A stretch of 64,000 nt of DNA from Gemmatimonadaceae bacterium (GTDB lineage: Bacteria; Gemmatimonadota; Gemmatimonadetes; Gemmatimonadales; Gemmatimonadaceae), in assembly GCA_045803545.1 (NCBI GenBank), contig JBJMOW010000002.1, positions 460,029 through 524,028 on the forward strand, read 5' to 3'. This document shows positions 35,970 to 58,763 of this stretch, one piece after another. A program made the position numbers and the translations under genes. Each line of letters opens with the position of its first letter. Positions within the stretch are counted from its first letter, which is position 1. Below the pieces are notes generated by a model. The model saw nothing but the letters and a program-made list of their open reading frames with translations. It ran no database searches and was not told the DNA's origin.

Positions 35970-36080
35970 GAAAACAAAAAAAACGGCCGCGGGCTCTTTT
36001 CAGAGCTGCGGCCGTGGTGAGCGGTCGAATGAATTTTGGTGCTTCTAACTCAGTTTACAGCCCGTCACAGGGCGACGCCA
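35970..36080 (-). promoter_or_regulatory. Promoter-leader-terminator cassette C (before lysis genes)
   Basis: TGGCGT-N17-TAAACT; AAAATTCA..ACCGCTCAC; ACGGCCGC/GCGGCCGT hairpin; TTTTTTGTTTTC. Confidence 0.8.
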
Positions 36081-36087
36081 CTCCTCG

Positions 36088-36630
36088 CTAGACCGAGTGC
36101 GGATCCGCAATACCGCGGGGGAACTTAGGGGTTCGGAGCAGCTCTTCTCTAGCCGCGCGCTTAACTGGAAAACTGTCGAACACCGAGAGCGCCTGTTTCC
36201 GGTTGGCGATACGTTCAGCCATTATAGCGGTCATCAGATCAATGACGTCCGCCACGTCGATGGCCTCGGGGCCGACAAGTGTATGGTGTGGAATGGAATG
36301 CGTTCCGGTCGCCGCCCTGAGCCCGGTTGGGGCACCTGTCTCATCGACCTCCCAGCAATCGGCATGCAGCACTGCGTAGTGATCCGCGTCCAGCACCTTT
36401 TCCTCGATCGCGACTACGACGTGCATTCCATGATCGGGCAAATGAAAAACCCGATGGTGCGCCTCGGTCGCAGCGGTGACAACATCGCCCGTCTCCACGC
36501 GAACATGCTTGGTAGTCGGGAATAACTGTCGCGCTGACCCGCCGTCTTTCTCGGCCGGGATCGCTTCGTCGGCGCCTAGATTCTGCGCGGCTCGCTGGAC
36601 TTCTTCTGCGCTTCCTTTGGGCAGTGGCAT
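36088..36630 (-). CDS. Hypothetical tail-associated protein
   Basis: ATG 36630 immediately after the tail-tip gene stop. Confidence 0.6.
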   Translation of the reverse strand: MPLPKGSAEEVQRAAQNLGADEAIPAEKDGGSARQLFPTTKHVRVETGDVVTAATEAHHRVFHLPDHGMHVVVAIEEKVLDADHYAVLHADCWEVDETGAPTGLRAATGTHSIPHHTLVGPEAIDVADVIDLMTAIMAERIANRKQALSVFDSFPVKRAAREELLRTPKFPRGIADPHSV

Positions 36631-36632
36631 CG

Positions 36633-39600
36633 TTAGACTGGTTTGATGTTGTGATTCAGAATGCCGGCCGCAATGAACGTCTGCGCTTTCTCGACGGTCA
36701 GCTTGACGACCGGTCCTAAGTCCCACGACCTGATGACGTGCTCCACACGCGCGCGCGGGCTGCCCATCAGCACCTGTCCGGGGAAAAGCGTTTGCGCCTG
36801 ACGCCAGGCATCAGCCCCTGCGAGTTTTAAGCGATGCTTGGCCGAGCATACGATGTGACGGCCGTCTTCGAACCAGATTTTCGTTCGCGCTTCCATGAGG
36901 TAGGCGGATGCCGCCTTGACTCTGAAAGCCCCGAAATGGTCCTGCCGGAATTCCGGAATGGTCCAGACGTAGTCGCCGACCTCGATCTGGTCGGCGCGCT
37001 TCTCGTGGAGATGCTTCCCGTGCCGGTCGCAGACAAGAATCAGCGTCTCCGGCGCGACGCACGTGGGACCGCCAGTGCCCGAGCCTGTTCCACTTCCTCC
37101 GGACGTTACGATTTGCCCGACGTAAAGGTGAGCCTGTTGGTTAGGTAAGTAATTGGGCTCGATCAGCGCGAAGTAGGTCGGCGATCCACCCCCGGCGATA
37201 GTTATATCATCTGTGTAGATGTAATTCTTGCCGGTAGCGTTTTGCGTACATGTCCCCGACCCATAGTCGACGACCTTTTCGTTGTTCCCCGTGTCCCCGA
37301 CTACGAGGCTCCAAGCGCCGATGCTGATTGTCGTGCCGCTTGAACTGACCGGAGTGGGCGAGCCGCGGTTCGCATTACTTATGACCTGCGCCGACCACGC
37401 GCCCGCTATTGCGGACGGGGCGTGCCGGAATGCACCGTCGAGGTAGCCGCTACTATGGAGCTGCGTGAAGCCACGACTGCCGCCCGTTTTTTCGTTGGCT
37501 GTTGTGCGTTTGTACGTCGAGCCCTCGGGCACATCGTCAAAGATGTGGTGGCTAGTATTGAAGTGCGTGTTTAGAGCGTAGCCGCGCGAATCGACGTGCG
37601 ACGAGTGTGATGTCAGTCCATCGTTTGTGGTGGATCTGCCGCCGTAATCGCCGTCGTCGAAAGGTCGCCCGCGTTTCACATGACCGGTGGTATCGATTTC
37701 CTGCCTCTGCGACGGAACGCTCGTGTGTATTTCGCTGAAGAGACCGGTGATCGTATCGGTGACGCGAAAGCGAATGAGCTTTGTACTTCTCAAATCCCGA
37801 TTAACGACCTGGGCATAAGCGAAGGACGTCCCATCGCCGCTGTTGAGGAGCGTCTCTGCGGAGTTACTGATCTTGACGTAGATGGCCCATGTCAGGTTCG
37901 TTCCACCTCCGCCGGATCCTGCCACCGCGTTGAGCGTCAACGTTCGAGTTGTATCATCGGCTTCGGTGGCGCTCGGTGTGATGGTCGGAACCGGCGGTTT
38001 GAACACCACAGGCATTCCCGTCGTTGATACGGCTCCGCTCTGACCGACCCCAGAGATCGCGTCGAGGCCGCGAATCGCGACGATGAAATCCGTGCCCCAA
38101 AGATTCTTGCCCACTATGACGCCGACGGCCGAGACCCTGCCGGAGATCGGCATTCCGTTGTCGGTTAAGCCGTCGGCCGAGAATGAGAGGCGACGATCGG
38201 TGTACTGGTCGGTTAGGATCGTGACTGCGTCGCCCATTTTGAGCCACGGCCACATCAGGACGGTCTTCACCTTCCAGAGTCGGACTCCGGATTTCCATGC
38301 GCGCTGAAACTTGTCGGCCGAATAATTCGCCTCAGCCAGATCGTTCCACCTGCAGAAGTTGTCCGGGAACTCGAATACGTCGAACAGATTCGGCCGACCC
38401 CAGCCAGTGAGCTCGTCGAACGCCTCGTAGGTCGCTTGGTTCGTGAACTTTTGGGTGTCCGCCTGGTAGCCATACTTCACGCGAACCGAAGGCATTCTCC
38501 GATCGGCGCCGATCGGAGTCTCGAGCGAAACGATATGGCGATCGTCCCATGTGGCGACGGAGACCTTATTCGGTGAGTAGATGTCGGCAAAATCGATTCG
38601 CCCTCTCTCCCACGTGATTATTCCGTCGGCGTGCAGGGCAACGTCCTGGATTATGTCGAGCGCTTTGACGCCGTCCGACGGCAGCGTGAAGGTGCCCGTG
38701 CGTCCCGTCGTCGGCGGCAGAATCCCGCGATACCGTGCTGGAACCGCCGACTGAACCCCGAGCAAATCGCTATAGATCGCTGCGTAGTCCTGCCCCACAT
38801 AAGCGGCACCCGTTCGCGTCGTTACGTCGGAGTGGATCTCGAAGGTGTCGCCGTTGACTGGCACCGTCTGGAGATTCGGATCCGCGTTGATGTCGAAGTG
38901 ATCGTTGTTATTCGCAACGATGACGTAATCGATTCCGGCGGCGTTCCCAGTGACGCCGTGTGCACGGAAGCCGACCAGGCTCTGCCCGGTGAAAGGGTGT
39001 GATCCGCTCGTCGACGGAGTGACGCGATAGGTCGTGCCTGAGACTAGAGCGACGGTTGTCGCGGCCACTGTACCCGACAGCGGATAGCGATACGTCTCGA
39101 CAGCGGAGGGAATCTTTACACTCAGGCGATCGAAGCCCGAGACGAAGGTCATCTCCTCGGTGCCGTCCTGCGGATCCCGGTTCTCGAGTCGATAGCTATT
39201 CAAGAAAAGCCGCGTTCCGTCGCGTGTGTTGCGTGCGTAGACGTGCGCCTCGAGCGAGGAGGGCGCGTATGACGATCCCAGGAGGGAAGCGAGATCTCGA
39301 TAGTCTTTCCGGCCGGCCTTCAGGATCGGCAGCTTGAGCTCGCCGATCGAAGACTGTCCGGTCACGGGATCTGCGGTGACGGTCGAATCGAAATCCTTGA
39401 GATAGCGATACGTGTTGAGTGTCACGCGTTCGACCATCATCCACGCCTGAAGACTCGGCGTCGCGAACCGCGTGCCCGACGCCGGACCCGCAGTGAAGCT
39501 CGCGGTCAGGCGATACCAGATGAAATAGTTGCCGTTGACGAGGATAGTCCCGTCCTTTACTGCGCCGATGCTGGTCCACGGCCCGGCCGCAGAGACGTTA

Positions 39601-40748
39601 GAACCCTCGAGGGAGTAGGTGATCGACGTCCCGATCGGCTGCCAGTCGTCGAGGCGCACTTCGAGATCGTGCGTCGGCACTCCGCCCATGCTGAGAACGC
39701 CGACCCAGGAGCCGCTTGCCGCAAAGGTCTTCGCCTTCAGGTTGTGATAAGGCTGCTCCCACGTGCCGCCGGAATCCTGCGCGCGCTGTTTCGTCGTTGG
39801 CCGTCTGGCGATTCCCCACGAGCCGTTTGTAACCGCCTTCGCTCCATAGCCTGGCACGGCGCCCGCGATCAGGCGATCGTCGGGATTGTGGGTGAGATCG
39901 TTCGCGGCGAATGGCTGGAGCGTCGGGTTGTACGGGCCGCAGTTACGATTGGTGGCCCGACGATAGAACGCGGTCGTGTCGAACTGCGCGGCCGTAGCGT
40001 TGGCGACGCATCCGATCCACGCGCCCTGAAATCCGCGCCCCACAGGCTCGACCGAGATCGAGAGACCGCGAGGCATGTTGATGATGTGGCAAACACCCTT
40101 GCTGTCGATGTTGGGGTTTCTGAGCGCGGAGCCATCGTAACCCAAGCCGGTGTTCGTGTTCTGGAAGCCCGGGTGGATAATGAACCGTCGCTGTGTCTGC
40201 GAGGTGAAATCGATCGTGTATACGCCGCCGCCTGGCGTGATGCCGGCAGCGTTGGCTTTTACGTCGAACGGATCCCCGATCGGAACGAGGTTCCAGTCGA
40301 CGTCGTAGTAGCCGAGGCGCACTCGAAAGATTCCGTTCTTGTCGAACGTGAACGAGCTGCCGGTCGCTCCGAAAGTGGCGAGGTAGAGATCGATCGACGC
40401 GAGCTCGATCGCGACGCCCTGCGCGATATTGGGATTGAAGAAGAAATCGAGCGCGTATTCCTCGGATCCATCAACCGCATCGTGGAACGCGTGGCGGACC
40501 GTCGCCGTATTGGTCTGCGAGAAAATGGAGCTCGTCCCCGTCTGGGTTAAGGACAGCGCTCCGGAGTTTGCGTCCGCGGTGACATTCGTCTTGGTGCCCG
40601 CGTCCCAATCCGCTTTCGTCGACGCCTGTGCCGCTCGCGCCACGGCGAGGATGTCGACGTCGAGCTCCATGCACGGGTTGAGGCGTTGGCATGCTCTAAT
40701 GATCGAAGCGACTGAGCCCGCCGCCGGTATTCCTGGTAGAGTGGGCAT
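36633..40748 (-). CDS. Tail tip/central fibre protein with C-terminal Hint domain
   Basis: 1371 aa, beta-rich, downstream of TMP and Dit-like genes; ends GGPT-CVAPETLI...CSAKHRL...TFIAAGILNHN-IKPV. Confidence 0.8.
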   Translation of the reverse strand: MPTLPGIPAAGSVASIIRACQRLNPCMELDVDILAVARAAQASTKADWDAGTKTNVTADANSGALSLTQTGTSSIFSQTNTATVRHAFHDAVDGSEEYALDFFFNPNIAQGVAIELASIDLYLATFGATGSSFTFDKNGIFRVRLGYYDVDWNLVPIGDPFDVKANAAGITPGGGVYTIDFTSQTQRRFIIHPGFQNTNTGLGYDGSALRNPNIDSKGVCHIINMPRGLSISVEPVGRGFQGAWIGCVANATAAQFDTTAFYRRATNRNCGPYNPTLQPFAANDLTHNPDDRLIAGAVPGYGAKAVTNGSWGIARRPTTKQRAQDSGGTWEQPYHNLKAKTFAASGSWVGVLSMGGVPTHDLEVRLDDWQPIGTSITYSLEGSNVSAAGPWTSIGAVKDGTILVNGNYFIWYRLTASFTAGPASGTRFATPSLQAWMMVERVTLNTYRYLKDFDSTVTADPVTGQSSIGELKLPILKAGRKDYRDLASLLGSSYAPSSLEAHVYARNTRDGTRLFLNSYRLENRDPQDGTEEMTFVSGFDRLSVKIPSAVETYRYPLSGTVAATTVALVSGTTYRVTPSTSGSHPFTGQSLVGFRAHGVTGNAAGIDYVIVANNNDHFDINADPNLQTVPVNGDTFEIHSDVTTRTGAAYVGQDYAAIYSDLLGVQSAVPARYRGILPPTTGRTGTFTLPSDGVKALDIIQDVALHADGIITWERGRIDFADIYSPNKVSVATWDDRHIVSLETPIGADRRMPSVRVKYGYQADTQKFTNQATYEAFDELTGWGRPNLFDVFEFPDNFCRWNDLAEANYSADKFQRAWKSGVRLWKVKTVLMWPWLKMGDAVTILTDQYTDRRLSFSADGLTDNGMPISGRVSAVGVIVGKNLWGTDFIVAIRGLDAISGVGQSGAVSTTGMPVVFKPPVPTITPSATEADDTTRTLTLNAVAGSGGGGTNLTWAIYVKISNSAETLLNSGDGTSFAYAQVVNRDLRSTKLIRFRVTDTITGLFSEIHTSVPSQRQEIDTTGHVKRGRPFDDGDYGGRSTTNDGLTSHSSHVDSRGYALNTHFNTSHHIFDDVPEGSTYKRTTANEKTGGSRGFTQLHSSGYLDGAFRHAPSAIAGAWSAQVISNANRGSPTPVSSSGTTISIGAWSLVVGDTGNNEKVVDYGSGTCTQNATGKNYIYTDDITIAGGGSPTYFALIEPNYLPNQQAHLYVGQIVTSGGSGTGSGTGGPTCVAPETLILVCDRHGKHLHEKRADQIEVGDYVWTIPEFRQDHFGAFRVKAASAYLMEARTKIWFEDGRHIVCSAKHRLKLAGADAWRQAQTLFPGQVLMGSPRARVEHVIRSWDLGPVVKLTVEKAQTFIAAGILNHNIKPV

Positions 40749-41615
40749 CTAGACGTAGAGCGTTGGCACGACTTCCTCGAATTCGCCGCGGATCTCTCGG
40801 TGAACCGGATTCACCTTGGGATCGTAGAGGAGATCGCCGGGGAGTTGGAACATTCGCATCTGGCCCACGCCCGTCGTGTCCGAATCGTCGAACGCGAACC
40901 AGCAGGGCGCGTTGTAGCGGAGCATGCGACGGATTTCGGCATCGAACGGTGCGTAGTCAGTCGATTCGACTGAGACCGCGAAAGCCACCTTGTCGAAATT
41001 CATGGGCCGCGATTTTACTCTGACTGCGCCGCGCGAGAGCTCGTTTCGCTGATACTTGACCTGCGTGCCGTAGTCGTAGGCCCCCGGCGCGTCCATAAAT
41101 TCCGAGAATCTGTAAGAGACTCCGAGATGAAGACCGGTAACTATCGGCGCGATACCGACACCCATGCCGATCGACTGGATCAACCACACCCTTTTTGCGG
41201 CGGTAGAGAACGTTTTCCACCAGACACCATCTGGCGTCAAACAGCCATTCGCATCAGATGGAAGGCCACCTGGGGTCGACGGAACCGTACAGGAGGCGTA
41301 TTGGACGACTCCGACTGAGAGGGTCGAGTCGTCGCAGCCATAAACATTGAAGGCCTGCCCTTTGAAGTTGTGGCCGCGGTCGAGCACTACGGTGTTCGGG
41401 CTTTGAACCGACAGGCAGTCGACGTAGAGGTCGCGTGTGCCGTTCGTTCCTACCGTCGTCCAACTGGTCATGTCGCGGAGGTTGTCGGCAACGTGAAAGG
41501 GCTCGTGGCCGGGAGCATCGTCGGCCGTTCCCGAAAAATTCTGGACGACAAAACCCGGATGTAGCACGACGTTGTCGTAGAGGTTGTCGGTGAGGATGAG
41601 CGGTTTGTTGGACAT
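40749..41615 (-). CDS. Distal tail (Dit-like) protein
   Basis: Position between TMP and tail-tip gene. Confidence 0.55.
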   Translation of the reverse strand: MSNKPLILTDNLYDNVVLHPGFVVQNFSGTADDAPGHEPFHVADNLRDMTSWTTVGTNGTRDLYVDCLSVQSPNTVVLDRGHNFKGQAFNVYGCDDSTLSVGVVQYASCTVPSTPGGLPSDANGCLTPDGVWWKTFSTAAKRVWLIQSIGMGVGIAPIVTGLHLGVSYRFSEFMDAPGAYDYGTQVKYQRNELSRGAVRVKSRPMNFDKVAFAVSVESTDYAPFDAEIRRMLRYNAPCWFAFDDSDTTGVGQMRMFQLPGDLLYDPKVNPVHREIRGEFEEVVPTLYV

Positions 41616-43504
41616 CAGAGCGCGACTCGGATCGGCTGGTTGAGATTGGTGGCGCGGTCGATCTGCTGGCGCGTGCGCGCGATCTCGCGCCCAGACTGAT
41701 CCTGGTGGATCAGGACGAACTCGAACTTGGTGATCTGGTCCGACTCACCCGCTCGGGCACCAGCTCCGAGCTGCGCCCCTGCCGGTCCACCACCGCCGCC
41801 GCCGCCGGATCCGGCACCCCCGCCGCCGCCGCCGCCGGCGATCCCGGCAACTACGCCCGCTTCGGTCGCGAACACTGCACCAGCTTCGAGGTGCCGCGCG
41901 CCGCCGGCGAAGTTGAGGTCCGCGAAGTCGCCGGCGGCGAGTGCGAACTGTTTAGCAGCCAGGCCCTCGAGGAGCTTTACTTCCGGATCCAGTGCGGCCC
42001 GGAGAAGTTGGCGGCCGAGATCCTTCCGGCTGTGAATGAGCGCGTTGCTCATGTTCGTCTCGACCGAGTAGATCAGGTCTGCCCGCTTCTTGATGACGTC
42101 GGCCTCTTTTTTCGCGTCCTTTTCTTTTTGCGTTAGCTGCTCCGCATCGAAGCGCTTGTTCTCAGCGCTGATTCGTCGATTCAGGGCCTGGACCGCGGCG
42201 ACTTCCTCATCATCGGCCTGTTTCTGCAAAGCCGCTTTGAGATCGTTCGAGATGTTCATCTCATCGATCTCCTTTCGCCTGACCTCGCGCTTTGCCTCAA
42301 TGACTGCGAGCTGCGAGAGCGCACCTGCCGGCGACGCGACATCCATCGCAGATGCTTTGGTCTCGAGCGTCCGGACGTTCAGGACATCGAGATCGCGGCG
42401 GGCTTTCTCATCATCCTTCATGCGGCGATCGAGAGCTGCGATCGCGGCCGAGCCCATTCTCACCGCCTCGTGCAGCTGCGCGAGTTCGGCGCCCTCGAGA
42501 CCTTTCTGTTGCTTCTCCTTCGGGAATAGCGCGCTATGGAGTTTGTCGATTTCGCTCCCCATACCAGCGCGGCCGGAGACATCCCATTTTGGAAGTTTGT
42601 CTAATGCTTCCTGGTCGGCCTTGAGTAGAGCGAGGCCGATGAGACGCTGCTCATGAGTGGCTTGGTGATGCGTTATGAGTGAGGCGAGGTCGGACGTGAA
42701 GGTCCGGTCCTGCGACTCTGTGCTCTTCGTGTAAAGAGCGTCGCGGTTCGCGATGGCAACGGCAAGGTCGTCGTTTGCCTTCGTCAAATTCGCCTTTAGA
42801 GTGTTCGTACTCCCCTGCGAGAACGGGTTGGCTAATGCTGCTTTCGCGCTCGCGACTTCCGCCTGCGCCGCCCCGACCGTCTGACCCTCAACGCCCCCGG
42901 CAAGTCTTTGGGCCTCCACCTCCCTCATCTTCTTGAGAAGGTCGTCTTGCGCCTTCTCCGCCTCGCGTGACGAGCTCGTAAATAGATCGTAGATCCCGAC
43001 GACTGCATCGATGCCCGCCAGGATAGCCGTGATCTCGATCGAGCCAATCGCAAACTTTCCAAGGCTCGTGACTAGGAGGCCGAGGGTCGAGTTGACGCCC
43101 AGCGTATGCTCGGCGAAGCTTGAGAGGCCCCGCTCCACGCGGCCCAGGGAAAGCGAGTGCTCTCCCAAGTGTCCGCTCGCTTCCGCGACCATCGCGGAAA
43201 AGAACCCCATGTTCTTGGTGCCGGCGACCGTCGCTACCGATTGTGATTTTATCCGGTCGTCGGTTCGGCTGATCGCGACCTCGAGCTTCAGCTGCTGCTC
43301 ATGCGTCGCTTTCGAAACGGTCAGATACTCGCGCGCTGCGTCCGCCGCTTTCTTCCACGTCTGGACGGCAATGTCGTTCGTCGTGTCGATAGCTTGCCCG
43401 AGCAGGCTGACTTCTCGAATCGTCGCGTTTATCGAACGCGAAACGTCCTTCGCGTCAGCGATTAGATCGACCGCTACTTGGGCTGCCGCCCCCGACAAAC
43501 TCAT
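41615..43504 (-). CDS. Tail tape measure protein
   Basis: Ala-rich helical 629 aa after the chaperone genes; Gly-rich C-terminus. Confidence 0.75.
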   Translation of the reverse strand: MSLSGAAAQVAVDLIADAKDVSRSINATIREVSLLGQAIDTTNDIAVQTWKKAADAAREYLTVSKATHEQQLKLEVAISRTDDRIKSQSVATVAGTKNMGFFSAMVAEASGHLGEHSLSLGRVERGLSSFAEHTLGVNSTLGLLVTSLGKFAIGSIEITAILAGIDAVVGIYDLFTSSSREAEKAQDDLLKKMREVEAQRLAGGVEGQTVGAAQAEVASAKAALANPFSQGSTNTLKANLTKANDDLAVAIANRDALYTKSTESQDRTFTSDLASLITHHQATHEQRLIGLALLKADQEALDKLPKWDVSGRAGMGSEIDKLHSALFPKEKQQKGLEGAELAQLHEAVRMGSAAIAALDRRMKDDEKARRDLDVLNVRTLETKASAMDVASPAGALSQLAVIEAKREVRRKEIDEMNISNDLKAALQKQADDEEVAAVQALNRRISAENKRFDAEQLTQKEKDAKKEADVIKKRADLIYSVETNMSNALIHSRKDLGRQLLRAALDPEVKLLEGLAAKQFALAAGDFADLNFAGGARHLEAGAVFATEAGVVAGIAGGGGGGGAGSGGGGGGGPAGAQLGAGARAGESDQITKFEFVLIHQDQSGREIARTRQQIDRATNLNQPIRVAL

Positions 43505-44231: not shown

Positions 44232-44238
44232 CGAACCT

Positions 44239-45231: not shown

Positions 45232-45424
45232 CGTTCGACTCGGTTATGACCGACTCCTCGTCGGTGTCAGGTTGTGGTGCTAGAATCGGGAGCCCTGCGG
45301 CTTCGCGTTGTGCGCCCGTTAGTTCGCTTTCATGGATCCGTCTACCATCACCGAAATCGATGAAGAGGCCGCCACGCGGATCTGCGGGATAATCCTTTGG
45401 TTTGTCGCTCACGGATTTCTTCAT
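45224..45424 (-). CDS. Small hypothetical protein
   Basis: Overlap coupling on both sides. Confidence 0.5.
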   Translation of the reverse strand: MKKSVSDKPKDYPADPRGGLFIDFGDGRRIHESELTGAQREAAGLPILAPQPDTDEESVITESNDV

Positions 45425-48136: not shown

Positions 48137-48151
48137 CAGTTGCTCCGTGGT

Positions 48152-49334: not shown

Positions 49335-51461
49335 CTAGGCCAGCGCGTCCTTCATCGCCGAGAACGCGGCGGCGTACTTGACGGCGATTCCGTACATGGC
49401 GAAGGAGGTCACTTCGATCATGCCCTGTTTCTTCAGGCGATACGGATCGACGATGAGCTCCATCATTCCCCAGTCACCGACGACGGCCTGACTCCAGGCG
49501 CCGAAGATGATCGCCAAGCAGATACCGCTCGACGAACCCTTGGTGAGGTTGTTGGGGACCTGGGCGGACACCCAGCCCGGGTAACCATTGATCTCGCCTG
49601 GAACGCGTGCGCCGAGACCCTGAACCGCTCCGGTTCCGAGAACGTTGGCGTCCGACTTCTGCCACACCGGAATGCCAACGGTGTTGGAGAGCACCTGCGC
49701 TTTCTTGAACGTGCCGCGCGTGGTCGGGTGCACCATGTACGCGCACGGCCACTGATCAGCGTTCGCAGCTGCGACCTGAGTTTCCAGATCGACGAGGTGC
49801 GTGTACGCCGGCGTCAGGCCGTTCGTGCCGCCGGCGACGGAACCGATACCTGACGTATTCAGGATTCCGGTCGGCTGGTTCGACGCGCCGGAGCCGTTGA
49901 TGACGGCGAGATCGAGCGCGATCGCGTTGACGCGCGCCAGATCGTTACGCACAATCGAATCGACGTCGACCACCGCCTGCGCGAGCAGCTGCCTCGAGTA
50001 GGAGGTCGAAGCCTGGATCGACTTCGGGTTGAGCGCGATCTGAGTCAGCGTCAGGTTGGAATCCGCGACGTCAGATCCGGGGTTTTCAGCGACCCACGTT
50101 GCGGTTGCGGCACCGTTCTGGGCCGGGAAGGCAACCGGACCCTGGAGACCCGCCATCAGGGTGACGCCGGCGTCGAACGCTGCCATCTTGTTGCGCAGCA
50201 GCTCGAGGAAATCACCGGGCACCGTGAACTTGAGCTCGAGACCCTTGGTGGAAGTCGCCGAGTCCAATCCAGCGCGTTGCTCCATCGGCCAACCGTTCTG
50301 GCGAGCCATGATCTCCCGCGCTCTCGCTTCCGAGGTGAAGGTCGGAACGAGGATTCCGCCATTCCGCTTGATTCCCTGTGGGACTTTCTTCTCCAGGTCC
50401 TGGGCGATCTCGCGCTCGAATGACGCATCGACTTTCTTGCCCATCACGTCTTCGGCGTGCGCGAGAATCGCCCGCTGGAAGGAGTATTGCTTCCGCTCCT
50501 TGTCGGTGAGCTCGACAGCCGGCTTCCCTGTCGGTGCGCTGGCATCGCCGCGCTCCTGGAGCTCGCCCAGGATCGAAGCGGCCGCGGAGTCGAGCGTGCG
50601 TCCCTCTTCGATCCACGTCGCCACTTTCTCGGCGGGGATCTTGTGCTTGGTGGCGAGTGAGCGGATTTCGTTCACTCGCTTGCGCTCGGCTTTGACGGCC
50701 TCGTCGCGATCCGCGACGGTGATCGCGGAGGGTTTGGATTCGGCCCCGTTATTCTCGGTAGCCGCGTTTGCTCCTGACATCGGATTGCTCCTGGCGGTGG
50801 CCTTCGGGGCCGTGATTGTGAGGTGAGGGAAGTGCTTGCGGAGCGCGGCGATCGCTGTCTCCGTGTCTTCGGGCGGCGCGTCCCCCGCGCTCCTGCCCAC
50901 GCCCACCGTGACATCGGCGGGAACTGCAACGCTCGAGGCTTCCATTGGGAGCCAGCGAGTGACGCGAACTTCGGGAACCTTGTTCTCGCCTTCGACTTCG
51001 CGCGTTTCCGTCTCGAGGCAGCGGTAGCCGACCGAGATCCGCTTTCGGATCCCGTCGAGCATATCGCGCCGGAGATCCTGCGCGGTCGTTCGTTGGCTAT
51101 AGCGCACCATGCCGCGCATCACGCCGTCTTTGTCGACCGAGATGTCTTCGACGATTCCTTCCTGCTGTCTCGTGTCGTGGCCATCGAGGAAAGCCATTCC
51201 GTCCCTCGCATAGGAGAGATCGACGGCCTCCTTCGTGTGCACGAGCACTTCGTCGTAGAACTCGCCGTCCCACCAGCTGTAGCGCCGGACCGGCGTCTCG
51301 CTCGAGATCGCGATCGGGACTCGCTCGTCGACGGTGCCGTCAGCCGCGCGAGTCGCAGCGACCTGGGCGAGCTTCTCCCGATCGACGACGAAAAGCATGT
51401 CGCGGTAGAAGACCTCGGCCTTTCTTTTCTCTTCGGATTTCTGTTCGGACTTTGAAGCCAT
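49335..51461 (-). CDS. Prohead protease-scaffold-major capsid fusion
   Basis: Protease FLDGHD, ISVGY, EASSVAVPAD; coiled scaffold; HK97 capsid domain. Confidence 0.9.
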   Translation of the reverse strand: MASKSEQKSEEKRKAEVFYRDMLFVVDREKLAQVAATRAADGTVDERVPIAISSETPVRRYSWWDGEFYDEVLVHTKEAVDLSYARDGMAFLDGHDTRQQEGIVEDISVDKDGVMRGMVRYSQRTTAQDLRRDMLDGIRKRISVGYRCLETETREVEGENKVPEVRVTRWLPMEASSVAVPADVTVGVGRSAGDAPPEDTETAIAALRKHFPHLTITAPKATARSNPMSGANAATENNGAESKPSAITVADRDEAVKAERKRVNEIRSLATKHKIPAEKVATWIEEGRTLDSAAASILGELQERGDASAPTGKPAVELTDKERKQYSFQRAILAHAEDVMGKKVDASFEREIAQDLEKKVPQGIKRNGGILVPTFTSEARAREIMARQNGWPMEQRAGLDSATSTKGLELKFTVPGDFLELLRNKMAAFDAGVTLMAGLQGPVAFPAQNGAATATWVAENPGSDVADSNLTLTQIALNPKSIQASTSYSRQLLAQAVVDVDSIVRNDLARVNAIALDLAVINGSGASNQPTGILNTSGIGSVAGGTNGLTPAYTHLVDLETQVAAANADQWPCAYMVHPTTRGTFKKAQVLSNTVGIPVWQKSDANVLGTGAVQGLGARVPGEINGYPGWVSAQVPNNLTKGSSSGICLAIIFGAWSQAVVGDWGMMELIVDPYRLKKQGMIEVTSFAMYGIAVKYAAAFSAMKDALA

Positions 51462-51471: not shown

Positions 51472-51605
51472 GAAAACGAAAAGCGGCCCCCAGATCTCCG
51501 AAGAGATCCGAGAGCCGCTGTGAGCGGTGCTATGAGTTGTGGCGCTGCTTTGGTACTACCGACTGCTTACAACTTCAGTGTACAACGGTGTCTGCGGACG
51601 CGCTA
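51472..51605 (-). promoter_or_regulatory. Promoter-leader-terminator cassette A (before capsid)
   Basis: TAGCGC-N17-TACACT-GAAGT; ACAACTCA..GCACCGCTCAC; AGCGGC..TTCG..GCCGCT hairpin; TTTCGTTTTC. Confidence 0.8.
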
Positions 51606-51614: not shown

Positions 51615-53108
51615 TCAGGAGGCTTGGAGCATCCTGGGCTTTTCTTTCTTCGGCGCCGGCGGCTGATTCCCGTTCTCATCGAGCGGTTCGGCATTGTCCT
51701 GCTTGGCGCCGATACCACCGATATAGACGCCGGCCTTCTCGGCGATTTCGTTCTCGCGTTTGAGATCGGCGATCAGATCTTCGAAGTCGCGACCCATCTC
51801 GGCACAGAGCTGCTGCCGCGAGGTGAGACCCAGGGCGAGCATCATTTCGTTGGCCCTCGCATCATTGTAGGGATCGACCCACTTCCAGCCGCGGCCCTTC
51901 CAGTCGACGTCGGTCCAGCGTTCGGCGATGCGCGATGGCAGCGAGAGGTAAGGCGTTAGGATCGCCATGTCGAGCCACGCGGCGAAGACGATGCGGTGCA
52001 CGTGCTCTGCGAACCAACCATGCAGCCGGCGCCAGAAATCGCGCTCCGACAATAGACCCGCTCGGATCGAGGAGTAGCTGGTTTCCTCGAGATCTCCGGT
52101 CAATGTCGTGTACGCTAAGCCGAGTCCGCCGGCGATCGTCCGGAGCATCGCTTTCAAGAAGGAAGCGAATTGCGCGTTTGGGTGCTGCGGATCCCACGGC
52201 GTGAACTTGTAGCCAGGAGGCGCCTGATCGATCGAGCCAGGCGCGACGTCCATCACGATCTTCTCGTTCGGCGCCGGCAGCTCGAACGCTGCGAATGCGT
52301 CGGGGATCGTTTCGAAGAAGCCCATCTTCGAAGCTGCGATACGAGCTGCCGTGACTTCGGCGTCCTCGTAGGCGCCCAGCATCTTCAGTCGGAAAATGAC
52401 CGGCGTGAGCCACGACACTCCTCGAGCCTGCTTGGCGCGCTTCCGCTTGAAGAGATGAATTATCTCCTCGGCGGGGATTCGGACTCTCTCGCGGCGGCCG
52501 GCTTCCGCCGGGTGAATCGTCCAGAAGTGATAGGCGACCGGTGCGCCCCATTTGTCGATCTCGACGCCCATCCAGATCTGGTTGCCGTTCTCCATGCGCT
52601 CGACGTTGAACTGCGAGTCGAGCAGGTCCGGATCGATCAGCTCCAAAGCGAAGCCGTACTTGTTGCGGAAGCCGGAGTGCTTACGGATGAACACTTCGCC
52701 GTCGACGACCAGGCTTTCGATGATACGGTCCTGGATGTCGACAAATGACATCGTTCGATCGACGCTCGCAGACTCGGGGTGCGACCAATCCCGCCACGCT
52801 TCGACGAGAGCCTTGTTGGCCTTCTCGGCCGGCGCGCCATCAGCTCCCTTGTTCCGCGGGTGCGGCGTTATGCCCGTTTCGCCGACGACGTTGCTGATGA
52901 ATTCGCGGACCGCCGCGTTGACTACGGGGTCGTCGCGGTAAAGAGCTCGAGCGCGGCGACGGAGCTCCCGAATGTCGGCGCGCGTTTCCTGATTGCCCGA
53001 TGCCGATGAGAGTCGCCAATCGGCCGAGAGTCGATCGACCATCGCGCCTTGCGCAAAGGCCCGCTTCCCGCGGCCGCCGGTTGCCGCGGCTGCAAAGGGA
53101 TTAGCCAT
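51615..53108 (-). CDS. Portal protein, lambda family
   Basis: LRRRARALYRDD, MGVEIDKWGAPVAYHF, RGVSWL, SYSSIRAG, WVDP. Confidence 0.92.
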   Translation of the reverse strand: MANPFAAAATGGRGKRAFAQGAMVDRLSADWRLSSASGNQETRADIRELRRRARALYRDDPVVNAAVREFISNVVGETGITPHPRNKGADGAPAEKANKALVEAWRDWSHPESASVDRTMSFVDIQDRIIESLVVDGEVFIRKHSGFRNKYGFALELIDPDLLDSQFNVERMENGNQIWMGVEIDKWGAPVAYHFWTIHPAEAGRRERVRIPAEEIIHLFKRKRAKQARGVSWLTPVIFRLKMLGAYEDAEVTAARIAASKMGFFETIPDAFAAFELPAPNEKIVMDVAPGSIDQAPPGYKFTPWDPQHPNAQFASFLKAMLRTIAGGLGLAYTTLTGDLEETSYSSIRAGLLSERDFWRRLHGWFAEHVHRIVFAAWLDMAILTPYLSLPSRIAERWTDVDWKGRGWKWVDPYNDARANEMMLALGLTSRQQLCAEMGRDFEDLIADLKRENEIAEKAGVYIGGIGAKQDNAEPLDENGNQPPAPKKEKPRMLQAS

Positions 53109-53370
53109 TTCGTTTTCTGGTCAGTGCGTACAGTCCGTCTGTAGCGATGCGGCCGATGAACCTCCAGCCACAGAGCGAGATCAGCAGTACGCCGGTCGAA
53201 GCCAGCCACAATGCGTGACGGCGAGCGGGCAGGAGCTCGACCACGCTTGCGGTGAGCAAGAACCAGCCGACCAGGATCGCAAGCGAAACCGCAAACTCTC
53301 CCGGATACTTGCTGATGAAATCCGCGATCCAACGCGTTATCCGAGCGGCCTGCGCGCGAAACCTGTTCAT
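53101..53370 (-). CDS. Small two-TM protein
   Basis: Hydrophobic; overlaps both neighbours. Confidence 0.55.
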   Translation of the reverse strand: MNRFRAQAARITRWIADFISKYPGEFAVSLAILVGWFLLTASVVELLPARRHALWLASTGVLLISLCGWRFIGRIATDGLYALTRKRNG

Positions 53371-54002
53371 GAATTAAGTGCCCTATACCAGGGTGGAAGA
53401 ACGACGGGCTCGCTCGTACCGATCGTGCCGTCGGGATTCATCATGACGGCGAGCACGGAAGGCCCGAGCGAGCCTTGGTTGCGGAGGCGATAAACTTTCG
53501 CCTGGTAGATTGCGCGCAGATTGACGAGATCCTTGAGCGGAGTCTTTGCGATCGATCGACCGCTGATCGCGTAGCTCTCGTGCGTGCTGCCGTTGCCGAC
53601 GATTCGCGCTTCGATCTCTGCCTCGAGCTTGGCCAGGACGCGCTCGACATGTGAGACCGCCGAAGCATCGGCAACTGCGGTCAGGTTGAGGACAATCGTG
53701 AAGACGCCCTGCTCGACGGTGTAATGTTGTCCGGCGTATGCGCCGGATCCGTCGACAAAGGATTGCCATTGATAGGCGCCGGAAGCGAGGAGAGCAGTTT
53801 TTGCCTTTGCGACGGTGACACTGTAGACCGACCCGCTCGAGCTGACGGTGACATCAGCGTTCGCGAGAACCGATTGCCCCCGGATCGCGTAGCCCAATGT
53901 CCAGCCTTCCGAAGGCGGGTAATTGGATAGCGTTTTAGTCCACGACCAGGTGTCGCCGGCGACGAGGACCTGGGGCTCTGACTGTGGGACTACTGGCGGC
54001 AT
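53367..54002 (-). CDS. Head completion protein (gpW-like C-terminus with an N-terminal beta domain)
   Basis: ESYAISGRSI..LKDL..LRAIY; between terL and portal. Confidence 0.65.
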   Translation of the reverse strand: MPPVVPQSEPQVLVAGDTWSWTKTLSNYPPSEGWTLGYAIRGQSVLANADVTVSSSGSVYSVTVAKAKTALLASGAYQWQSFVDGSGAYAGQHYTVEQGVFTIVLNLTAVADASAVSHVERVLAKLEAEIEARIVGNGSTHESYAISGRSIAKTPLKDLVNLRAIYQAKVYRLRNQGSLGPSVLAVMMNPDGTIGTSEPVVLPPWYRALNS

Positions 54003-54011: not shown

Positions 54012-54129
54012 GAAAACGAAAACGGCCCCGATCTCCGCTGAGAGACCGAGGCCGTTGTGAGCGGTGCTGTGAATTGTGACGGGTTCGCTACCCTGACTTC
54101 AGTATTGTCGCGAGCGCCGAGCGACGCAA
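54012..54129 (-). promoter_or_regulatory. Promoter-leader-terminator cassette B (before gpW/portal)
   Basis: TTGCGT-N17-AATACT-GAAGT; ACAATTCA..GCACCGCTCAC; ACGGCC/GGCCGT hairpin; TTTCGTTTTC. Confidence 0.8.
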
Positions 54130-54130
54130 G

Positions 54131-56074
54131 CTAGTCGTTCTTCCACTTATTCACCCAGTTGCGGTTGCCAGGCCGCTTGAAGGGTGCGAGTGGATCGTCT
54201 TGCGCCACGTTCGCTTGCGGCTTCTTCCATTCCGATAGCGCCTTGGCTCTCGCCTCGAGACTGTCGATTATGCTCGGGCCCAGCGCGTGGAGACCGCCGA
54301 GCGCGTACACGTAACCGTCGATCTCCTCGTTCGGTCCGGTCCGGACCCAGATTCCTTTCGGCCGGCCGTTCACGATCTTCCGCATCAACTTCTCGTTCAT
54401 GAACTGCTCGACACGAGCTCGGTCGATGTCGTGCGGGATCCAGATGTAGAACGGCTTACGCTCTCCTGGCTCCGGCCGCTTCACCTTGAGCAGCCGCTTC
54501 ATCAGCGCTTCTTTGCCCGTGTAGCTCCCGATTTGGTAGGTAACGATGCGTTGCGTCTTGTGACGCTTGGGGGGCGACACGATCGGAACGCCTTCCTGGA
54601 GCGAGGATCCCTTTACCGCGTAGACTTTGTACCGCGCGTGCTTCCTCGCGAAGTCGTAGACCTGCTGCGCGTGGTGTCCGCCGGCGTCGATAAACGTTAT
54701 CGAAACGCTCATCGGAGCTCCGGATTCGTGCGTGTATGGTTTCAAAATGATTCGACTCAGCTCGTCCCAGGGATCCTTGGTTGCCGGATCGCCAGGAATC
54801 ATCTCGAAGTCGGTGCGCCATGCCTCCTCTCGGTGACCGAATCCCCACACGAATGTCTCGAGGCGATCGCCCTGGACGTCGACCGAACGGATAAGAACGC
54901 CGACACCGTGCGGAACGATGGGTTGCGGGTCGTCCGGATCCGGACCTCGAGGGAAGATCGTCTTGTGTGAGTCGAGCACTCCGTCGTCCAGCTGCTCGCC
55001 GCCTTCGACCCAGAAATCGCAGAGTATCGTATTGATGAAAGCCTGCAGCTTGAGTGGATCCTCTTTGTCGCGGAGAAATCGCGCGACCAGGTCGCTCCAA
55101 CGGAAGAACGGCGAATAGAGAGCAGAGATCCTGAAACCAGGAATCGGCGAGTCCGGATTCTGAGCGATCCAGCGGCCGCGCTTTAGCATGAGCATCTTGT
55201 CAGCTTCTTCGATCAGCGAGCTGCACGCGATGCAGACGTAGTGAGCGGTCTCCGGCTTCCCCTCGTCCCACTTGAGCCCGTGTTTCGAATCGCGATCGCC
55301 GAACTCGAGTTTCTGTTCGTGGCTGCAGTGAGGGCAGGGGACGAAGTACTCGCGTTGATCGGATGCCTCATACGCCTTTCCGATCGGCCCATCTTCGACG
55401 GTGGGCGAGGATACGTCGATGATCTTTCTATTCGGAAACGTTGATGTGCGCGACTCGGAGATCCCGCGCGGATCGCCTTCGGCGCCGGCGGACGCGGCGT
55501 AGCGATCGATCTCGTCGCGGAGGAGTACTCGGATCGGCCGCGCTGCCAAACCAGCGGCACTATTTGACCCGACGATTGTCAAATGACCCCCCGCAAATGT
55601 CTTGTGGGTGATCGTGTTGCCAGAATCGCGGGATCTCGAGTCGGCGACTTTGCCTTTGAGTCGCGGCGTGTCGCGCAGCATTGGAGCCAGCCGATCTTTC
55701 GACCACGCCTCCGCCATTTCCTTCGTCGGCTGCAGCATCAGGATCGGCGACGGATCCTGATCCATATAGTAGCCGGCGACGTTGTTGAGCGTCTCCGTCT
55801 TCCCGAGCTGCGAACCCCACATGCCGACGACGTGCGAGAACTTCGGGTCGCCGCACACATCCATGAATTCTTTCTGATACGGTGCATCGTCCGACGAATA
55901 TGGACCGGCGCGGAACGATGATTCCGGCGAGAGCATCCGGTATCGATCGGCCCATTGCGACACGGTGAGGCGAGGCGGCGGCTTTAGTCGCTCGTAGAGA
56001 ATTTTGCGCTCGAGCGCGGCGAGCTTGGAGCTCCGGGTGCGGCCGTGTTTAGTCTTTCCTGGTAACTCGGTCAT
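54131..56074 (-). CDS. Terminase large subunit, lambda gpA family
   Basis: SQWADRYR, SQLGKTE, DEIDRY, SSPT, YFVPCPHC, VDVQ, IDAGG. Confidence 0.95.
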   Translation of the reverse strand: MTELPGKTKHGRTRSSKLAALERKILYERLKPPPRLTVSQWADRYRMLSPESSFRAGPYSSDDAPYQKEFMDVCGDPKFSHVVGMWGSQLGKTETLNNVAGYYMDQDPSPILMLQPTKEMAEAWSKDRLAPMLRDTPRLKGKVADSRSRDSGNTITHKTFAGGHLTIVGSNSAAGLAARPIRVLLRDEIDRYAASAGAEGDPRGISESRTSTFPNRKIIDVSSPTVEDGPIGKAYEASDQREYFVPCPHCSHEQKLEFGDRDSKHGLKWDEGKPETAHYVCIACSSLIEEADKMLMLKRGRWIAQNPDSPIPGFRISALYSPFFRWSDLVARFLRDKEDPLKLQAFINTILCDFWVEGGEQLDDGVLDSHKTIFPRGPDPDDPQPIVPHGVGVLIRSVDVQGDRLETFVWGFGHREEAWRTDFEMIPGDPATKDPWDELSRIILKPYTHESGAPMSVSITFIDAGGHHAQQVYDFARKHARYKVYAVKGSSLQEGVPIVSPPKRHKTQRIVTYQIGSYTGKEALMKRLLKVKRPEPGERKPFYIWIPHDIDRARVEQFMNEKLMRKIVNGRPKGIWVRTGPNEEIDGYVYALGGLHALGPSIIDSLEARAKALSEWKKPQANVAQDDPLAPFKRPGNRNWVNKWKND

Positions 56075-56595
56075 GCCGCATCGTCGCCGGCATCGAGCTC
56101 GTCGAGCTCAGGATCCTCGTCCTCGATTTCCTGTGCGGTGCCCTGCAGCGCGCGAAGCAGCTCGTCGCGTATCTGCTCGCCGACAGCCTGCGCCTCGAGA
56201 TCGGTCCGCGTCACCTGGATTCGCGACAGGAACTTGGATGGCACTGTCATCAGCACCGCGCGCAGTCGATCGCAAATTCCGCCGACTCGCTTCTCGTGCA
56301 CGTCGAAAGGAATGAGCCGGCCATCGGCTTCCTCGACCTCGATCTCCGCCTTCCGAACTTCGGCGACGAATTTCCGCTTCCGGAGATCCTTGAGATCATC
56401 CTCGGGCTGTTTCTTTCGCTCCTGCGCGCGGATATATCCGTCGTACCAGACGCGCGACTCAGGCCATGGATGCGTTGCCTTCGCGCCCTCGCCATCCTTC
56501 GGCAATCCTTCGAAAACGAGATTCCGAACGTGACGCGTTGTGATTCCTAGGCGCTCAGCGAGCTCCTTCTGCGAGATCGACTTGGAACGAGACAC
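56071..56595 (-). CDS. Terminase small subunit (Nu1-like)
   Basis: N-terminal wHTH SQKELAERLGITTRHV..GLP; coiled coil; upstream of terL. Confidence 0.85.
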   Translation of the reverse strand: MSRSKSISQKELAERLGITTRHVRNLVFEGLPKDGEGAKATHPWPESRVWYDGYIRAQERKKQPEDDLKDLRKRKFVAEVRKAEIEVEEADGRLIPFDVHEKRVGGICDRLRAVLMTVPSKFLSRIQVTRTDLEAQAVGEQIRDELLRALQGTAQEIEDEDPELDELDAGDDAA

Positions 56596-56641
56596 GAATC
56601 ACGAGAGGCGGAAGGGAAATGCGACTTTGAAAAGTCTGGCG

Positions 56642-56696
56642 CTAGCAAAATGGCGAGCTGGCGCGTGACCCTCATTAGAACCCTTGGGAAGGACCC
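56642..56696 (-). other. Putative cos site (cosQ/cosN-like)
   Basis: GGGTCCT (same as lambda cosQ) then GGGTCACGCGCCAGCTCGCCATTTTGCTA, just upstream of terS. Confidence 0.6.
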
Positions 56697-56714
56697 AAAG
56701 TCTTGCTCGCGCGC

Positions 56715-57245
56715 TCATGCACGCACCAACGGTGTGTCACTGAACACGCGCCACTGGCGCGCTTCAACGAGATCAGTAATGAAGACCTGCGTGATCTCAA
56801 CACCCCACGGTGCGAGCCGCTTGGACATGAGAGCCGCGAGCTCGGCCTGCACCTCATCGCGCCTTTCCGTTAGATCGGTCCAGCTACGCTTGGTGCATTC
56901 TGTAGCGAGATAGCCAATGGCCATGTTGGTGACGCTTTGATTGATGTTCGACACCGCCGCCCAGAGCGTCTGGATGCTGAGAACGCGATACGCGATGTTC
57001 GCTGATACGGCGATGCTCTTACCATCGGACGTGGTCACAGCAGCAGTGGGCAGATCTATGGTCTGCTCGGTGGAGTAAGCGGTGTACACTTCCTCGAGCA
57101 CCGGCCATCGCATGTGCAGGCCGGGCTTCAGCTCTCTTCGCAATTGCCCACCGCGGAGCAGTAGACCCTGCTGCCAGCCGTACACACGTGAGATGGGCCA
57201 GATCGCTTTGAGATTGGCGATGATGAAGTTGATGAGCGCCTGCAT
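56715..57245 (-). CDS. SPFH/band-7 domain protein
   Basis: LKPGLH..WP, TIDLP..VTTSDG..I.VSA.IAYRV, WGVEI..V.ITD. Confidence 0.8.
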   Translation of the reverse strand: MQALINFIIANLKAIWPISRVYGWQQGLLLRGGQLRRELKPGLHMRWPVLEEVYTAYSTEQTIDLPTAAVTTSDGKSIAVSANIAYRVLSIQTLWAAVSNINQSVTNMAIGYLATECTKRSWTDLTERRDEVQAELAALMSKRLAPWGVEITQVFITDLVEARQWRVFSDTPLVRA

Positions 57246-57884
57246 CTAACGCGCACTCGCCATTGCTTCATTAAATCGCTGCTCGAAACTCTTCGCCCAC
57301 AGCTTCTCGACCGCTTCTCTGAACGTGGCTTCGAAATGAAGATTCGCGGGGATCGGCACCTGTGGCGTGAGCCAATAGAGGAGGATGTAGTCGCGCGGGC
57401 CCGGGCCGGTGCGCTGGAAGATTCCCTCGCGTCCGCTTCGCGTCTTCATTAGAAACGAGCGCTGATCGCCGCGCGTGGCCTTGCCAACCGCATGCAGATG
57501 CAGGTTCTTGGGACGCAGCTCCGGAGGTACGACTCCACCTCTTCCCGGCCGCGCCAGGATCGGGATCGCGATATTGCGGCCGGTGCGTGAGGTCTTGATG
57601 CCACCAGGCTCGAACTTGTTCATGAAGTCCGCTTTGTCGCCCACTTGGATGCGCGTGTAGATCGGGTTATCGCGCTTGGTCGAGAAGTGCGTGATCTTCA
57701 CCGATTCCTGCAGCACCCACGGCCGCCTGATCGTGAAGTTCTGACGCTCGGCATTCCAGAGCATTTGCTGGCCAGCCTTCGCAACGTCGTTCGTTGCCTG
57801 CGAGGCAGCGAATGGGATCTGTTCTCTCTCGGCATCGGTGAAGACTTTCTTGAGAGCTTCGATGTCGCAGCGGATCTGAATCAT
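57246..57884 (-). CDS. Tail completion-like (gpZ-type) basic protein
   Basis: QIPFAASQATNDVA, GIFQRTG; ATG 57884. Confidence 0.6.
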   Translation of the reverse strand: MIQIRCDIEALKKVFTDAEREQIPFAASQATNDVAKAGQQMLWNAERQNFTIRRPWVLQESVKITHFSTKRDNPIYTRIQVGDKADFMNKFEPGGIKTSRTGRNIAIPILARPGRGGVVPPELRPKNLHLHAVGKATRGDQRSFLMKTRSGREGIFQRTGPGPRDYILLYWLTPQVPIPANLHFEATFREAVEKLWAKSFEQRFNEAMASAR

Positions 57885-58060
57885 GGGGATCCGTCCGCCT
57901 GGTCGAGAGCCGTCGCAGCTTCTGAATCGGGTACCGTCCAGCCCTGCCACCGATACCAAAACCAGTATTCGAACGGGATTAGATCTCCGTCCTTTTCGAC
58001 TTCGACGCGGACCGGCCAGAACGGATCTGCGGTGCCGCCCGGGATCGTGACCTGCTTCAC
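57881..58060 (-). CDS. Small Trp-rich hypothetical protein (59 aa)
   Basis: GTGA/ATGA overlaps at both ends; below the ORF-track cutoff. Confidence 0.5.
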   Translation of the reverse strand: MKQVTIPGGTADPFWPVRVEVEKDGDLIPFEYWFWYRWQGWTVPDSEAATALDQADGSP

Positions 58061-58386
58061 GCTGTGAGTCCTCGATCGAGCCCCAGAAACTCGAGCATCT
58101 GATCGAGGTTCATGCGCTTGCTTTCCATTTCGCGCATCTCTTCACGCGTGCACATCGTGAGGAGATTCCGCGGCTGACCTTTGACGTCTTTGAGATCGCC
58201 ACCGATAAGCAGCACGACATAGCTGCAGTCTTCCCGGCTGTCTGTCCCTTTGTGGTGGCAAGCGAGACCAGCTGACGTCCAGACCAGCGGATCATGAAAG
58301 CGATGGCCGGCCGGACAGTACTTCGGCAGTGCTCTACCGTTGGCGTCTTGCGCGAGCTCAAACCAGACCCGTCGGCCTTTCATCAT
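58057..58386 (-). CDS. Cys/His zinc-finger-like protein
   Basis: CPAGH...CHH...C. Confidence 0.55.
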   Translation of the reverse strand: MMKGRRVWFELAQDANGRALPKYCPAGHRFHDPLVWTSAGLACHHKGTDSREDCSYVVLLIGGDLKDVKGQPRNLLTMCTREEMREMESKRMNLDQMLEFLGLDRGLTA

Positions 58387-58644
58387 TTAGCGATGTCCGG
58401 CGTAGCCCGGGCGCATGAAAGCCCGCGTCTTACCCTTCACTTTGTGAAACGGCGGAATCACGGAGGCATTCGCGCGATTGTTGATGCGAATTTCGCGCAG
58501 CGCCTTGCCAACGCGATCGACATGCTCGCCGATTAGATCACGTTCGGGCGCAGCTGGCTGCGCAGCTCCGGCTGGTTCGGGCCCAAAACCGAAGAATGCG
58601 AGTACGGCAGCGAAGAGCGCCGGGAGCCAGGATCGAAACCGCAT
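58387..58644 (-). CDS. Hypothetical protein with N-terminal hydrophobic segment
   Basis: First ORF after cassette D. Confidence 0.55.
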   Translation of the reverse strand: MRFRSWLPALFAAVLAFFGFGPEPAGAAQPAAPERDLIGEHVDRVGKALREIRINNRANASVIPPFHKVKGKTRAFMRPGYAGHR

Positions 58645-58655
58645 GTGAGACCCCC

Positions 58656-58763
58656 GAAAACGAAAAACGCGGCTGACGTCCTTTAAGCTAGGACGCCGGG
58701 CCGCGTATGAGGCGTGTTGCTGGGTTGTCCCTATAGTTTATCGCCGCGCATCCATGGGGGCAA
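58656..58763 (-). promoter_or_regulatory. Promoter-leader-terminator cassette D (start of late region)
   Basis: TTGCCC-N17-TAAACT; ACAACCCA..ACGCCTCAT; ACGCGGC/GCCGCGT hairpin; TTTTCGTTTTC. Confidence 0.75.

Follow-up and report, generated by a model that had tools for sequence, protein, structure and literature searches.

A candidate protein-held RNA attenuation system before the late gene blocks of a Gemmatimonadaceae prophage

The window analysed here—a stretch of 64,000 nucleotides (nt) from a Gemmatimonadaceae bacterium (assembly GCA_045803545.1, contig JBJMOW010000002.1, positions 460,029 to 524,028)—holds a prophage in which each late gene block is preceded by a minus-strand cassette of promoter-like hexamers, a short leader and a long terminator hairpin. 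The known ways in which phages control their late genes are mostly Q-type loading on RNA polymerase, activators of promoters, or new sigma factors. The cassettes suggest a different solution: each leader bears a small alternative hairpin whose 3′ arm is at the same time the base of the terminator stem, and a zinc-binding protein encoded at 58057–58386 might hold this hairpin, so that the terminator base cannot close and each late block is released locally, similar to a ribonucleic antiterminator (RAT). We place the probability of this reading at about 0.57. The cassettes as such are real and conserved, and they look like an as yet undescribed variant of protein-mediated attenuation in phage late control; no description of this system was found in the openly accessible literature searched.

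The four cassettes comprise the following elements, where AMAAY denotes a short motif in the leader and ORF an open reading frame:

58656–58763, minus strand: cassette D; −35-like TTGCCC at 58758–58763, −10-like TAAACT at 58735–58740, AMAAY at 58724–58728; alternative hairpin CGC/CTCATAC/GCG at 58702–58714, terminator stem at 58667–58706, U-tract to 58656; would gate the ORF at 58387–58644, the zinc-protein gene, and the neck and terminase genes.
54012–54129, minus strand: cassette C; −35-like TTGCGT at 54124–54129, −10-like AATACT at 54101–54106, AMAAY from 54077; alternative hairpin CCG/CTCACAA/CGG at 54052–54064, terminator at 54021–54056; would gate the head-tail joining gene and the portal.
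51472–51605, minus strand: cassette B; −35-like TAGCGC at 51600–51605, −10-like TACACT at 51577–51582, AMAAY from 51540; alternative hairpin CCG/CTCACAG/CGG at 51515–51527, terminator at 51482–51519; would gate the protease-capsid and tail genes.
35970–36080, minus strand: cassette A; −35-like TGGCGT at 36075–36080, −10-like TAAACT at 36052–36057, AMAAY from 36037; alternative hairpin CCG/CTCACCA/CGG at 36012–36024, terminator at 35983–36015; would gate the probable lysis block.

A first-pass annotation of this DNA had proposed these elements, and their anatomy stands: all four lie where it placed them, with hexamers spaced by exactly 17 bp, long hairpins (−24 to −31 kcal/mol), interrupted U-tracts, and an ATG following after 11 (D), 9 (C), 10 (B), and 16 nt (A). 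A pattern of core box—the conserved leader sequence abutting the terminator—and U-tract matches the 3.70-Mb assembly four times on both strands together, namely at the cassettes, which are also the only minus-strand terminator-like calls of the whole prophage. Each of these late-strand terminators bears its own promoter and its own box, and a box-less terminator was not found on that strand. The four-base spacer described within the box is present in A, B, and C; in D it is one base longer. While the distance from the −10 hexamer to the box varies (6 nt in D, 23 in C, 36 in B, 14 in A), partly taken up by small variable hairpins, the position of the box relative to the terminator is constant. 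No cassette of the window and none of 8 related loci matched Rfam 15 at the gathering score.

These features bear on the possibility that the leaders are functional small RNAs, or processing or stabilising hairpins, which do not gate the genes behind them. Long stems and the extra hairpins seen in some leaders would suit such a role. On the other side, upper stems and 5′ leader parts vary freely and only the element overlapping the terminator is kept; moreover, a Shine-Dalgarno sequence follows directly 3′ of the U-tract, outside the terminator structure (in cassette A none is clear before the ATG), and the stop signals stand between co-oriented essential genes. We regard this explanation as very improbable.

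The box had been taken for a linear leader motif with a variant form in cassette D. The sequence is indeed present, but judged by its pairing it is better read, for the most part, as a 3-bp hairpin around the 7-nt loop CUCAYAN, and the 3′ arm of this hairpin forms the bottom of the terminator. In an alignment of seven leaders—those of the window and of the close phages L010 and L011, whose portal is ~70% identical and in which cassettes B and C are retained although their upper stems are new—CCG pairs across the 7-nt loop with CGG, the first bases of the terminator stem, and the D variant, CGC/GCG, is a double compensatory change. All 21 of 21 cells are paired and two pairs are changed on both sides, compared with 5–43% in slid controls, in a test whose rows are few and related (10 of 500 shuffles).

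The geometry is the same, although the sequences are unrelated, in more distant prophages, which were first picked by portal similarity in 18 of 401 phylum genomes: stems of 4–7 bp, loops of 5–9 nt, a 3′ arm that forms the terminator base, and AMAAY 4–14 nt upstream of the small hairpin. The layout of promoter, AMAAY, small hairpin overlapping a long terminator, and Shine-Dalgarno sequence is a recurring one in Gemmatimonadaceae-type prophages. Internal mismatches in 16 alternative hairpins are G-U in 8 cases (from four phages), A-C in 2, and other in 6, and this dominance of G-U favours an RNA on the transcribed strand. A reading of the box as a dyad site in DNA was rejected because cassette D is altered in each of the half-sites and because, elsewhere, G-U pairs predominate. 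The box also resembles a lac operator half-site, and the sequence before B an RfaH ops site; neither likeness is kept across the cassettes.

Searches with the window sequences reached less far. Exact-box searches gave only chance single matches outside G000 in 101 related genomes, and 19 of 22 matches in IMG/VR were chance; such searches are thus too narrow. A covariance model of the seven leaders gave a best E of 0.008 in 108 other genomes of the genus and no match in G018, where neither terminase nor portal queries located the late region.

Since the small hairpin is mutually exclusive with the terminator base and recurs with other sequences, it suggests local attenuation rather than a Q- or N-like processive antitermination. 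Hence, the earlier proposal of terminated leaders that gate the late blocks keeps its layout, which related phages share, and changes its mechanism. Terminator stems measure 11–21 bp in the cassettes against a host median of 11, and in the conAn system, long stems make terminators resistant to processive antitermination (PMC10325885)—which makes the long cassette stems fit local release. The competing proposal is a nut-like one: AMAAY would correspond to boxA, read by host Nus factors, and the hairpin to boxB, with the zinc protein riding on RNA polymerase and rendering it termination-resistant. A bipartite element that combines a motif constant across phages with a phage-specific hairpin is what this would predict; in related phages, the zinc-protein gene is often found where Q would lie, directly before the first cassette, and the leaders of G052 have a box without an alternative hairpin. 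However, the 3′ arm of the hairpin is always the terminator base, no box-less terminator is there to be passed, the stems are long in the sense just cited, and no N-like family was matched in Pfam. We consider loading of this kind unlikely.

The cassette promoters fall below the threshold of the scan tool, which applies the E. coli consensus, and score at least 8 as promoter-like in 23 of 28 cassettes (related prophages included; 35 terminators minus 7 judged not to be cassettes) versus 44 of 224 host terminators. Host tRNA genes are preceded by the same TTG..TANNNT form, and judged by this form the cassette promoters look constitutive. This matters for the idea that the zinc protein acts at initiation, as a late activator or a DNA-loaded factor of the Q or AlpA kind, with leaky or insulating terminators and an incidental small hairpin. 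Promoters below the consensus threshold might ask for an activator, and zinc-finger late activators exist (Ogr). But no conserved DNA element was found in or upstream of the promoters (spacer identity 3–7 of 17), nor a −10-like pause element (TANNNT) within 30 nt after any cassette −10; the host tRNA promoters share the form, and the conserved element is fixed to the terminator instead of the promoter. Action at initiation thus seems improbable.

The first-pass annotation recognised neither Q nor N and supposed that the factor may be new. In line with this, Q, N, Ogr, Mor, CAT, and ANTAR families had no match among 61 ORFs searched in PHROGs and 120 early and regulatory ORFs searched in Pfam, and no BglG homologue was found. 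For the factor, a candidate can now be named on sequence grounds, a protein without annotation:

58057–58386, minus strand: candidate antiterminator, a CHCC zinc-binding protein of 109 aa with C24, H28, C43, and C54.

Its gene is the second behind cassette D, its start overlapping the stop of the upstream ORF, and it is the single family member in the window assembly. The protein is 81% identical in L011, where a further, divergent paralogue lies immediately before cassette D. Compared with L011, 45 codons are identical, 40 synonymous, and 20 replacement; the codon pattern indicates that the gene is under purifying selection. A profile of the window and L011 proteins picked divergent homologues upstream of the neck gene in four portal-selected cassette phages. 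The enlarged family amounts to 245 clusters at 50% identity (E ≤ 0.001), of which 150 were listed and, with 3 repeat proteins left out, 144 rows aligned; the four zinc ligands are near-invariant in this alignment. Members occur in 7 of 401 phylum, 19 of 401 family, and 5 of 109 genus genomes, the last count including G000 and G784. For this family, searches of Pfam, PHROG, PDB sequences, the ESM Atlas, and cultured phages gave no match. The predicted model is confident (pLDDT 87) and shows a C-terminal sheet and two helices; fold searches returned 0 Foldseek matches at E ≤ 0.001 in PDB and BFVD and a best Z of 3.9, without a clear match, and no RNA holder was among the entries listed. In two related prophages, a tmRNA gene lies directly upstream of the zinc-protein gene (L097:3949–4316, L149:3385–3768).

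Protein and cassettes go together across phages. All terminators called in 26 family-positive locus stretches were scored by a layout rule that asks for an overlapping hairpin of ≤ −0.5 kcal/mol and for AMAAY no more than 16 nt away from it. AMAAY and alternative hairpin were found at 23 of 35 terminators in zinc-family loci, versus 3 of 224 in the host and 2 of 14 in phage loci that lack the family; the rule, to whose definition 7 of the 35 contributed, was relaxed once (18 of 35 versus 8 of 224 under the stricter first definition), and the U-tract filter was looser for phage than for host (6 versus 7 T in 12). Eight phages found only via the zinc protein have the layout at 10 of 20 terminators, in 7 of the 8, while the short family-positive contigs G018, G189, G406, G522, G578, and G730 gave no terminator call near the gene. 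Among 160 loci gathered by terminase, 157 are family-negative with the layout at 2 of 37 terminators; the 3 family-positive ones are phages already counted. For the portal-selected prophages, both protein and cassette are present in 4 places, the protein alone in 0, the cassette alone in 1, and neither in 7 (p 0.01), in a table entered by hand; it covers those 12 of 20 places that had sufficient flanking sequence, the other 8, short or unfetched, having been dropped. Protein and cassettes are found with four unrelated terminase/portal families.

A certain pairing of protein and leader types is visible as well. Near protein neighbours share leader types (window/L011b, G244/G583, G463/G710), and the window phage has one zinc gene and one loop type at all four sites. 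L011, on the other hand, has two paralogues and two leader types: its paralogue a groups with the G244/G583 proteins (support 85/87), and the D leader adjoining it is closest to the leaders of G244/G583 and differs from the B and C leaders of L011.

From the sequence we infer the course of transcription, termination, binding, read-through, and feedback as follows. Each late block would have its own housekeeping-type promoter, giving a leader of 70–100 nt that ends at a long intrinsic terminator; in the lysogen, the leaders would terminate and the late genes stay off. Transcription would first expose single-stranded AMAAY and the small hairpin, whose 3′ arm makes up the first 3–6 nt of the terminator 5′ arm. 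The CHCC zinc protein might bind this AMAAY/hairpin element and hold the small hairpin, whereby the bottom of the terminator stem beside the U-tract could not close and RNA polymerase would read into the Shine-Dalgarno sequence and the genes behind. Control would be local, with one box per terminator. As the zinc gene lies behind a terminator of its own type in cassette D, autoregulation is implied—a positive feedback that would set in once early transcription or leak supplies the protein.

Several observations weigh against this proposal. In the window, the small hairpin has only 3–4 bp and −0.8 to −4.4 kcal/mol, and holding it costs 8–11.5 kcal/mol at equilibrium; a switch so weak and costly must be kinetic or paid for by the protein. 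The zinc protein carries no net positive charge (16 K/R versus 15 D/E). All family-positive genomes belong to f1, so that the co-occurrence is confounded by host family and the counts are those of kin. G052 has the zinc protein and two leaders that share a box but no alternative hairpin, family-bearing G504 has no clear alternative hairpin, and one G478 cassette precedes an integrase instead of a late gene. Over 14 units, the rank correlation of proteins and leaders is nil (Spearman 0.04, p 0.35) and the Pearson coefficient of 0.57 is driven by close pairs; linkage alone might keep a gene and its adjacent leader together. In G219, a cassette occurs without a zinc-family member, and other small ORFs were compared with less sensitive profiles, which leaves room for another shared factor.

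The last points lead to the proposal that, while the attenuators are real, they are operated by a different agent—a factor of the host, some other ORF of the phage, or an RNA acting in trans—and the zinc gene is a passenger of the late region. It would accommodate the host-family confounding and the unequal search sensitivity, and also G219 and G248, which combine leader terminators with another four-cysteine protein in the place that the zinc protein takes elsewhere (32% identity between the two, no link to the zinc family). It is at odds with the co-occurrence of zinc family and cassettes across unrelated head modules and with the two paralogues and two leader types of L011, and we give it poor odds. 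As for the observations themselves, the second four-cysteine family lies upstream of the neck gene in the two family-negative phages (L089:13144–13365, minus strand; L081:1859–2170, plus strand), the terminator sequence of G248 is repeated three times almost unchanged, and the G478 cassette (L153:3209, minus strand) is of the same type and stands back to back with the zinc-protein gene.

Release by the zinc protein, if true, would make local RAT-like attenuation, repeated per late block, a distinct solution for phage late control and would give a function to an unannotated zinc family. It would also offer natural orthogonal protein–RNA switch pairs, which are testable with short reporters although the hosts are uncultured. 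A wider picture is more tentative, and we hold it at somewhat less than even odds: a switch built wholly of protein-held RNA attenuators, in which a widespread zinc family without a known fold reads phage-specific loops at several late blocks, the L011 paralogues form a two-step cascade, single copies provide positive feedback, and the unrelated four-cysteine family does the same in sister phages.

The prophage itself is complete, its 41.5 kb (22238–63776) being bounded by 224-bp attachment (att) repeats. PHROGs matches within it include a repressor, RecT, terminase, a lambda-like portal, a protease-capsid, and connector genes. Its main features are:

22238–22461, plus strand: left att repeat, beginning in tRNA-Ser(GGA).
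63777–64000, plus strand: right att repeat, 99.6% over 224 bp, reaching the contig end.
29657–30227: repressor gene (plus strand) and divergent near-consensus early promoter (minus strand).
58387–58644, minus strand: first ORF behind cassette D, 85 aa with no assigned function, its C-terminal part kept in L011.
54131–57959, minus strand: block D; neck/minor tail, SPFH protein, small and large terminase subunits.
51615–54002, minus strand: block C; head-tail joining protein, small membrane ORF, lambda-like portal.
36088–51461, minus strand: block B; protease-capsid fusion, second capsid-like ORF, decoration, probable tail genes.
33245–35953, minus strand: block A, probable lysis; small membrane ORFs, phrog_3000 protein, glycosyl hydrolase, Rz-like protein.

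Block A is probably the lysis block, judging by a weak Rz-like match and by endolysin matches behind cassettes of related phages. At the contig end (63777–64000), the right phage end is followed by the att core and then by the 3′ end of the integrase gene. Such a junction resembles attP, and in the sample the prophage may be present in excised, replicating, or tandem form. The early operon is divided by the att site (22383–29685 and 58812–63776), and integration separates the replication-type genes at 59–63.5 kb from the early promoter, which lies at 29.7 kb, so that early transcription would presumably reach cassette D only after excision. The early operon also bears a phage tRNA-Gly(GCC) (28812–28884, minus strand), and the gene behind the repressor (30228–30986, plus strand) combines a HELCH metallopeptidase-like motif with a HIRAN domain, possibly an ImmA-like anti-repressor protease. 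In the late region, tandem capsid-like genes (48152–51461) encode the 708-aa protease-capsid fusion and a 361-aa paralogue ~40% alike, an arrangement kept in L010 and L011, while the SPFH/Band 7 membrane protein between neck and terminase genes (56715–57245, minus strand) was not found in L011. A cobalamin riboswitch (8746–8912, plus strand) belongs to the host.

Among known systems, Q/pR′/tR′ of lambdoid phages, as described in PMC9388147, shares a constitutive-type late promoter, a short terminated leader before the late genes, and a regulator gene that is often just upstream. The window phage differs in having several cassettes and an RNA element located at the terminator; it shows neither a QBE nor a pause element, and no gene of the Q type (Qlambda, Q21, Q82, AlpA) was found among the ORFs searched in the complete prophage. 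The structural matches listed for the zinc-protein model included no Q. Lambda N/nut is alike in its bipartite RNA site of a short single-stranded motif and a small hairpin; here, however, the hairpin overlaps the terminator, there is one site per terminator, and control is late instead of early. An N-family arginine-rich protein had no Pfam match among the 120 ORFs, although such peptides diverge fast. ANTAR systems, which combine an ANTAR domain with twin hexaloop hairpins, differ by the single hairpin per leader and by the lack of an ANTAR match in the zinc family or the 120 ORFs.

The bglG gene lies behind its own terminator, as the zinc gene does in the window. In BglG/SacY/LicT-RAT systems (PMC7430163), the antiterminator is unstable unless a protein stabilises it, and it excludes a single terminator; the cassettes likewise have a weak antiterminator hairpin mutually exclusive with the terminator. 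The differences concern the element (a 13–20-nt hairpin with AMAAY), the factor (a small zinc protein, with no CAT or PRD Pfam match in 144 zinc-family members or the 120 ORFs), and the setting, which is phage developmental control rather than sugar sensing. Com of phage Mu (PMC6483171) is likewise a small zinc protein encoded by a phage; at mom, it binds a short hairpin that overlaps an RNA structure with an inhibitory effect, and binding of this kind is proposed for our candidate. Com is a CCCC protein of 62 aa that acts on translation, with a CC(N)2–3GAG loop motif and a structure that hides the translation start, whereas the candidate is CHCC, the inhibitory structure a terminator, the window loops of the CTCAYAN type, and the Shine-Dalgarno sequence 3′ of the U-tract. 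Homology to Com was rejected (hhalign 1.9%, E 0.025), and the Com zinc ribbon PF10122 matched 0 of 144 family members at E ≤ 0.01, while matching Mu Com itself. By analogy, the cassettes would work like BglG/LicT-RAT attenuation in the role of Q/pR′/tR′, with a factor reminiscent of Mu Com, although the protein-family test failed for each of these three.

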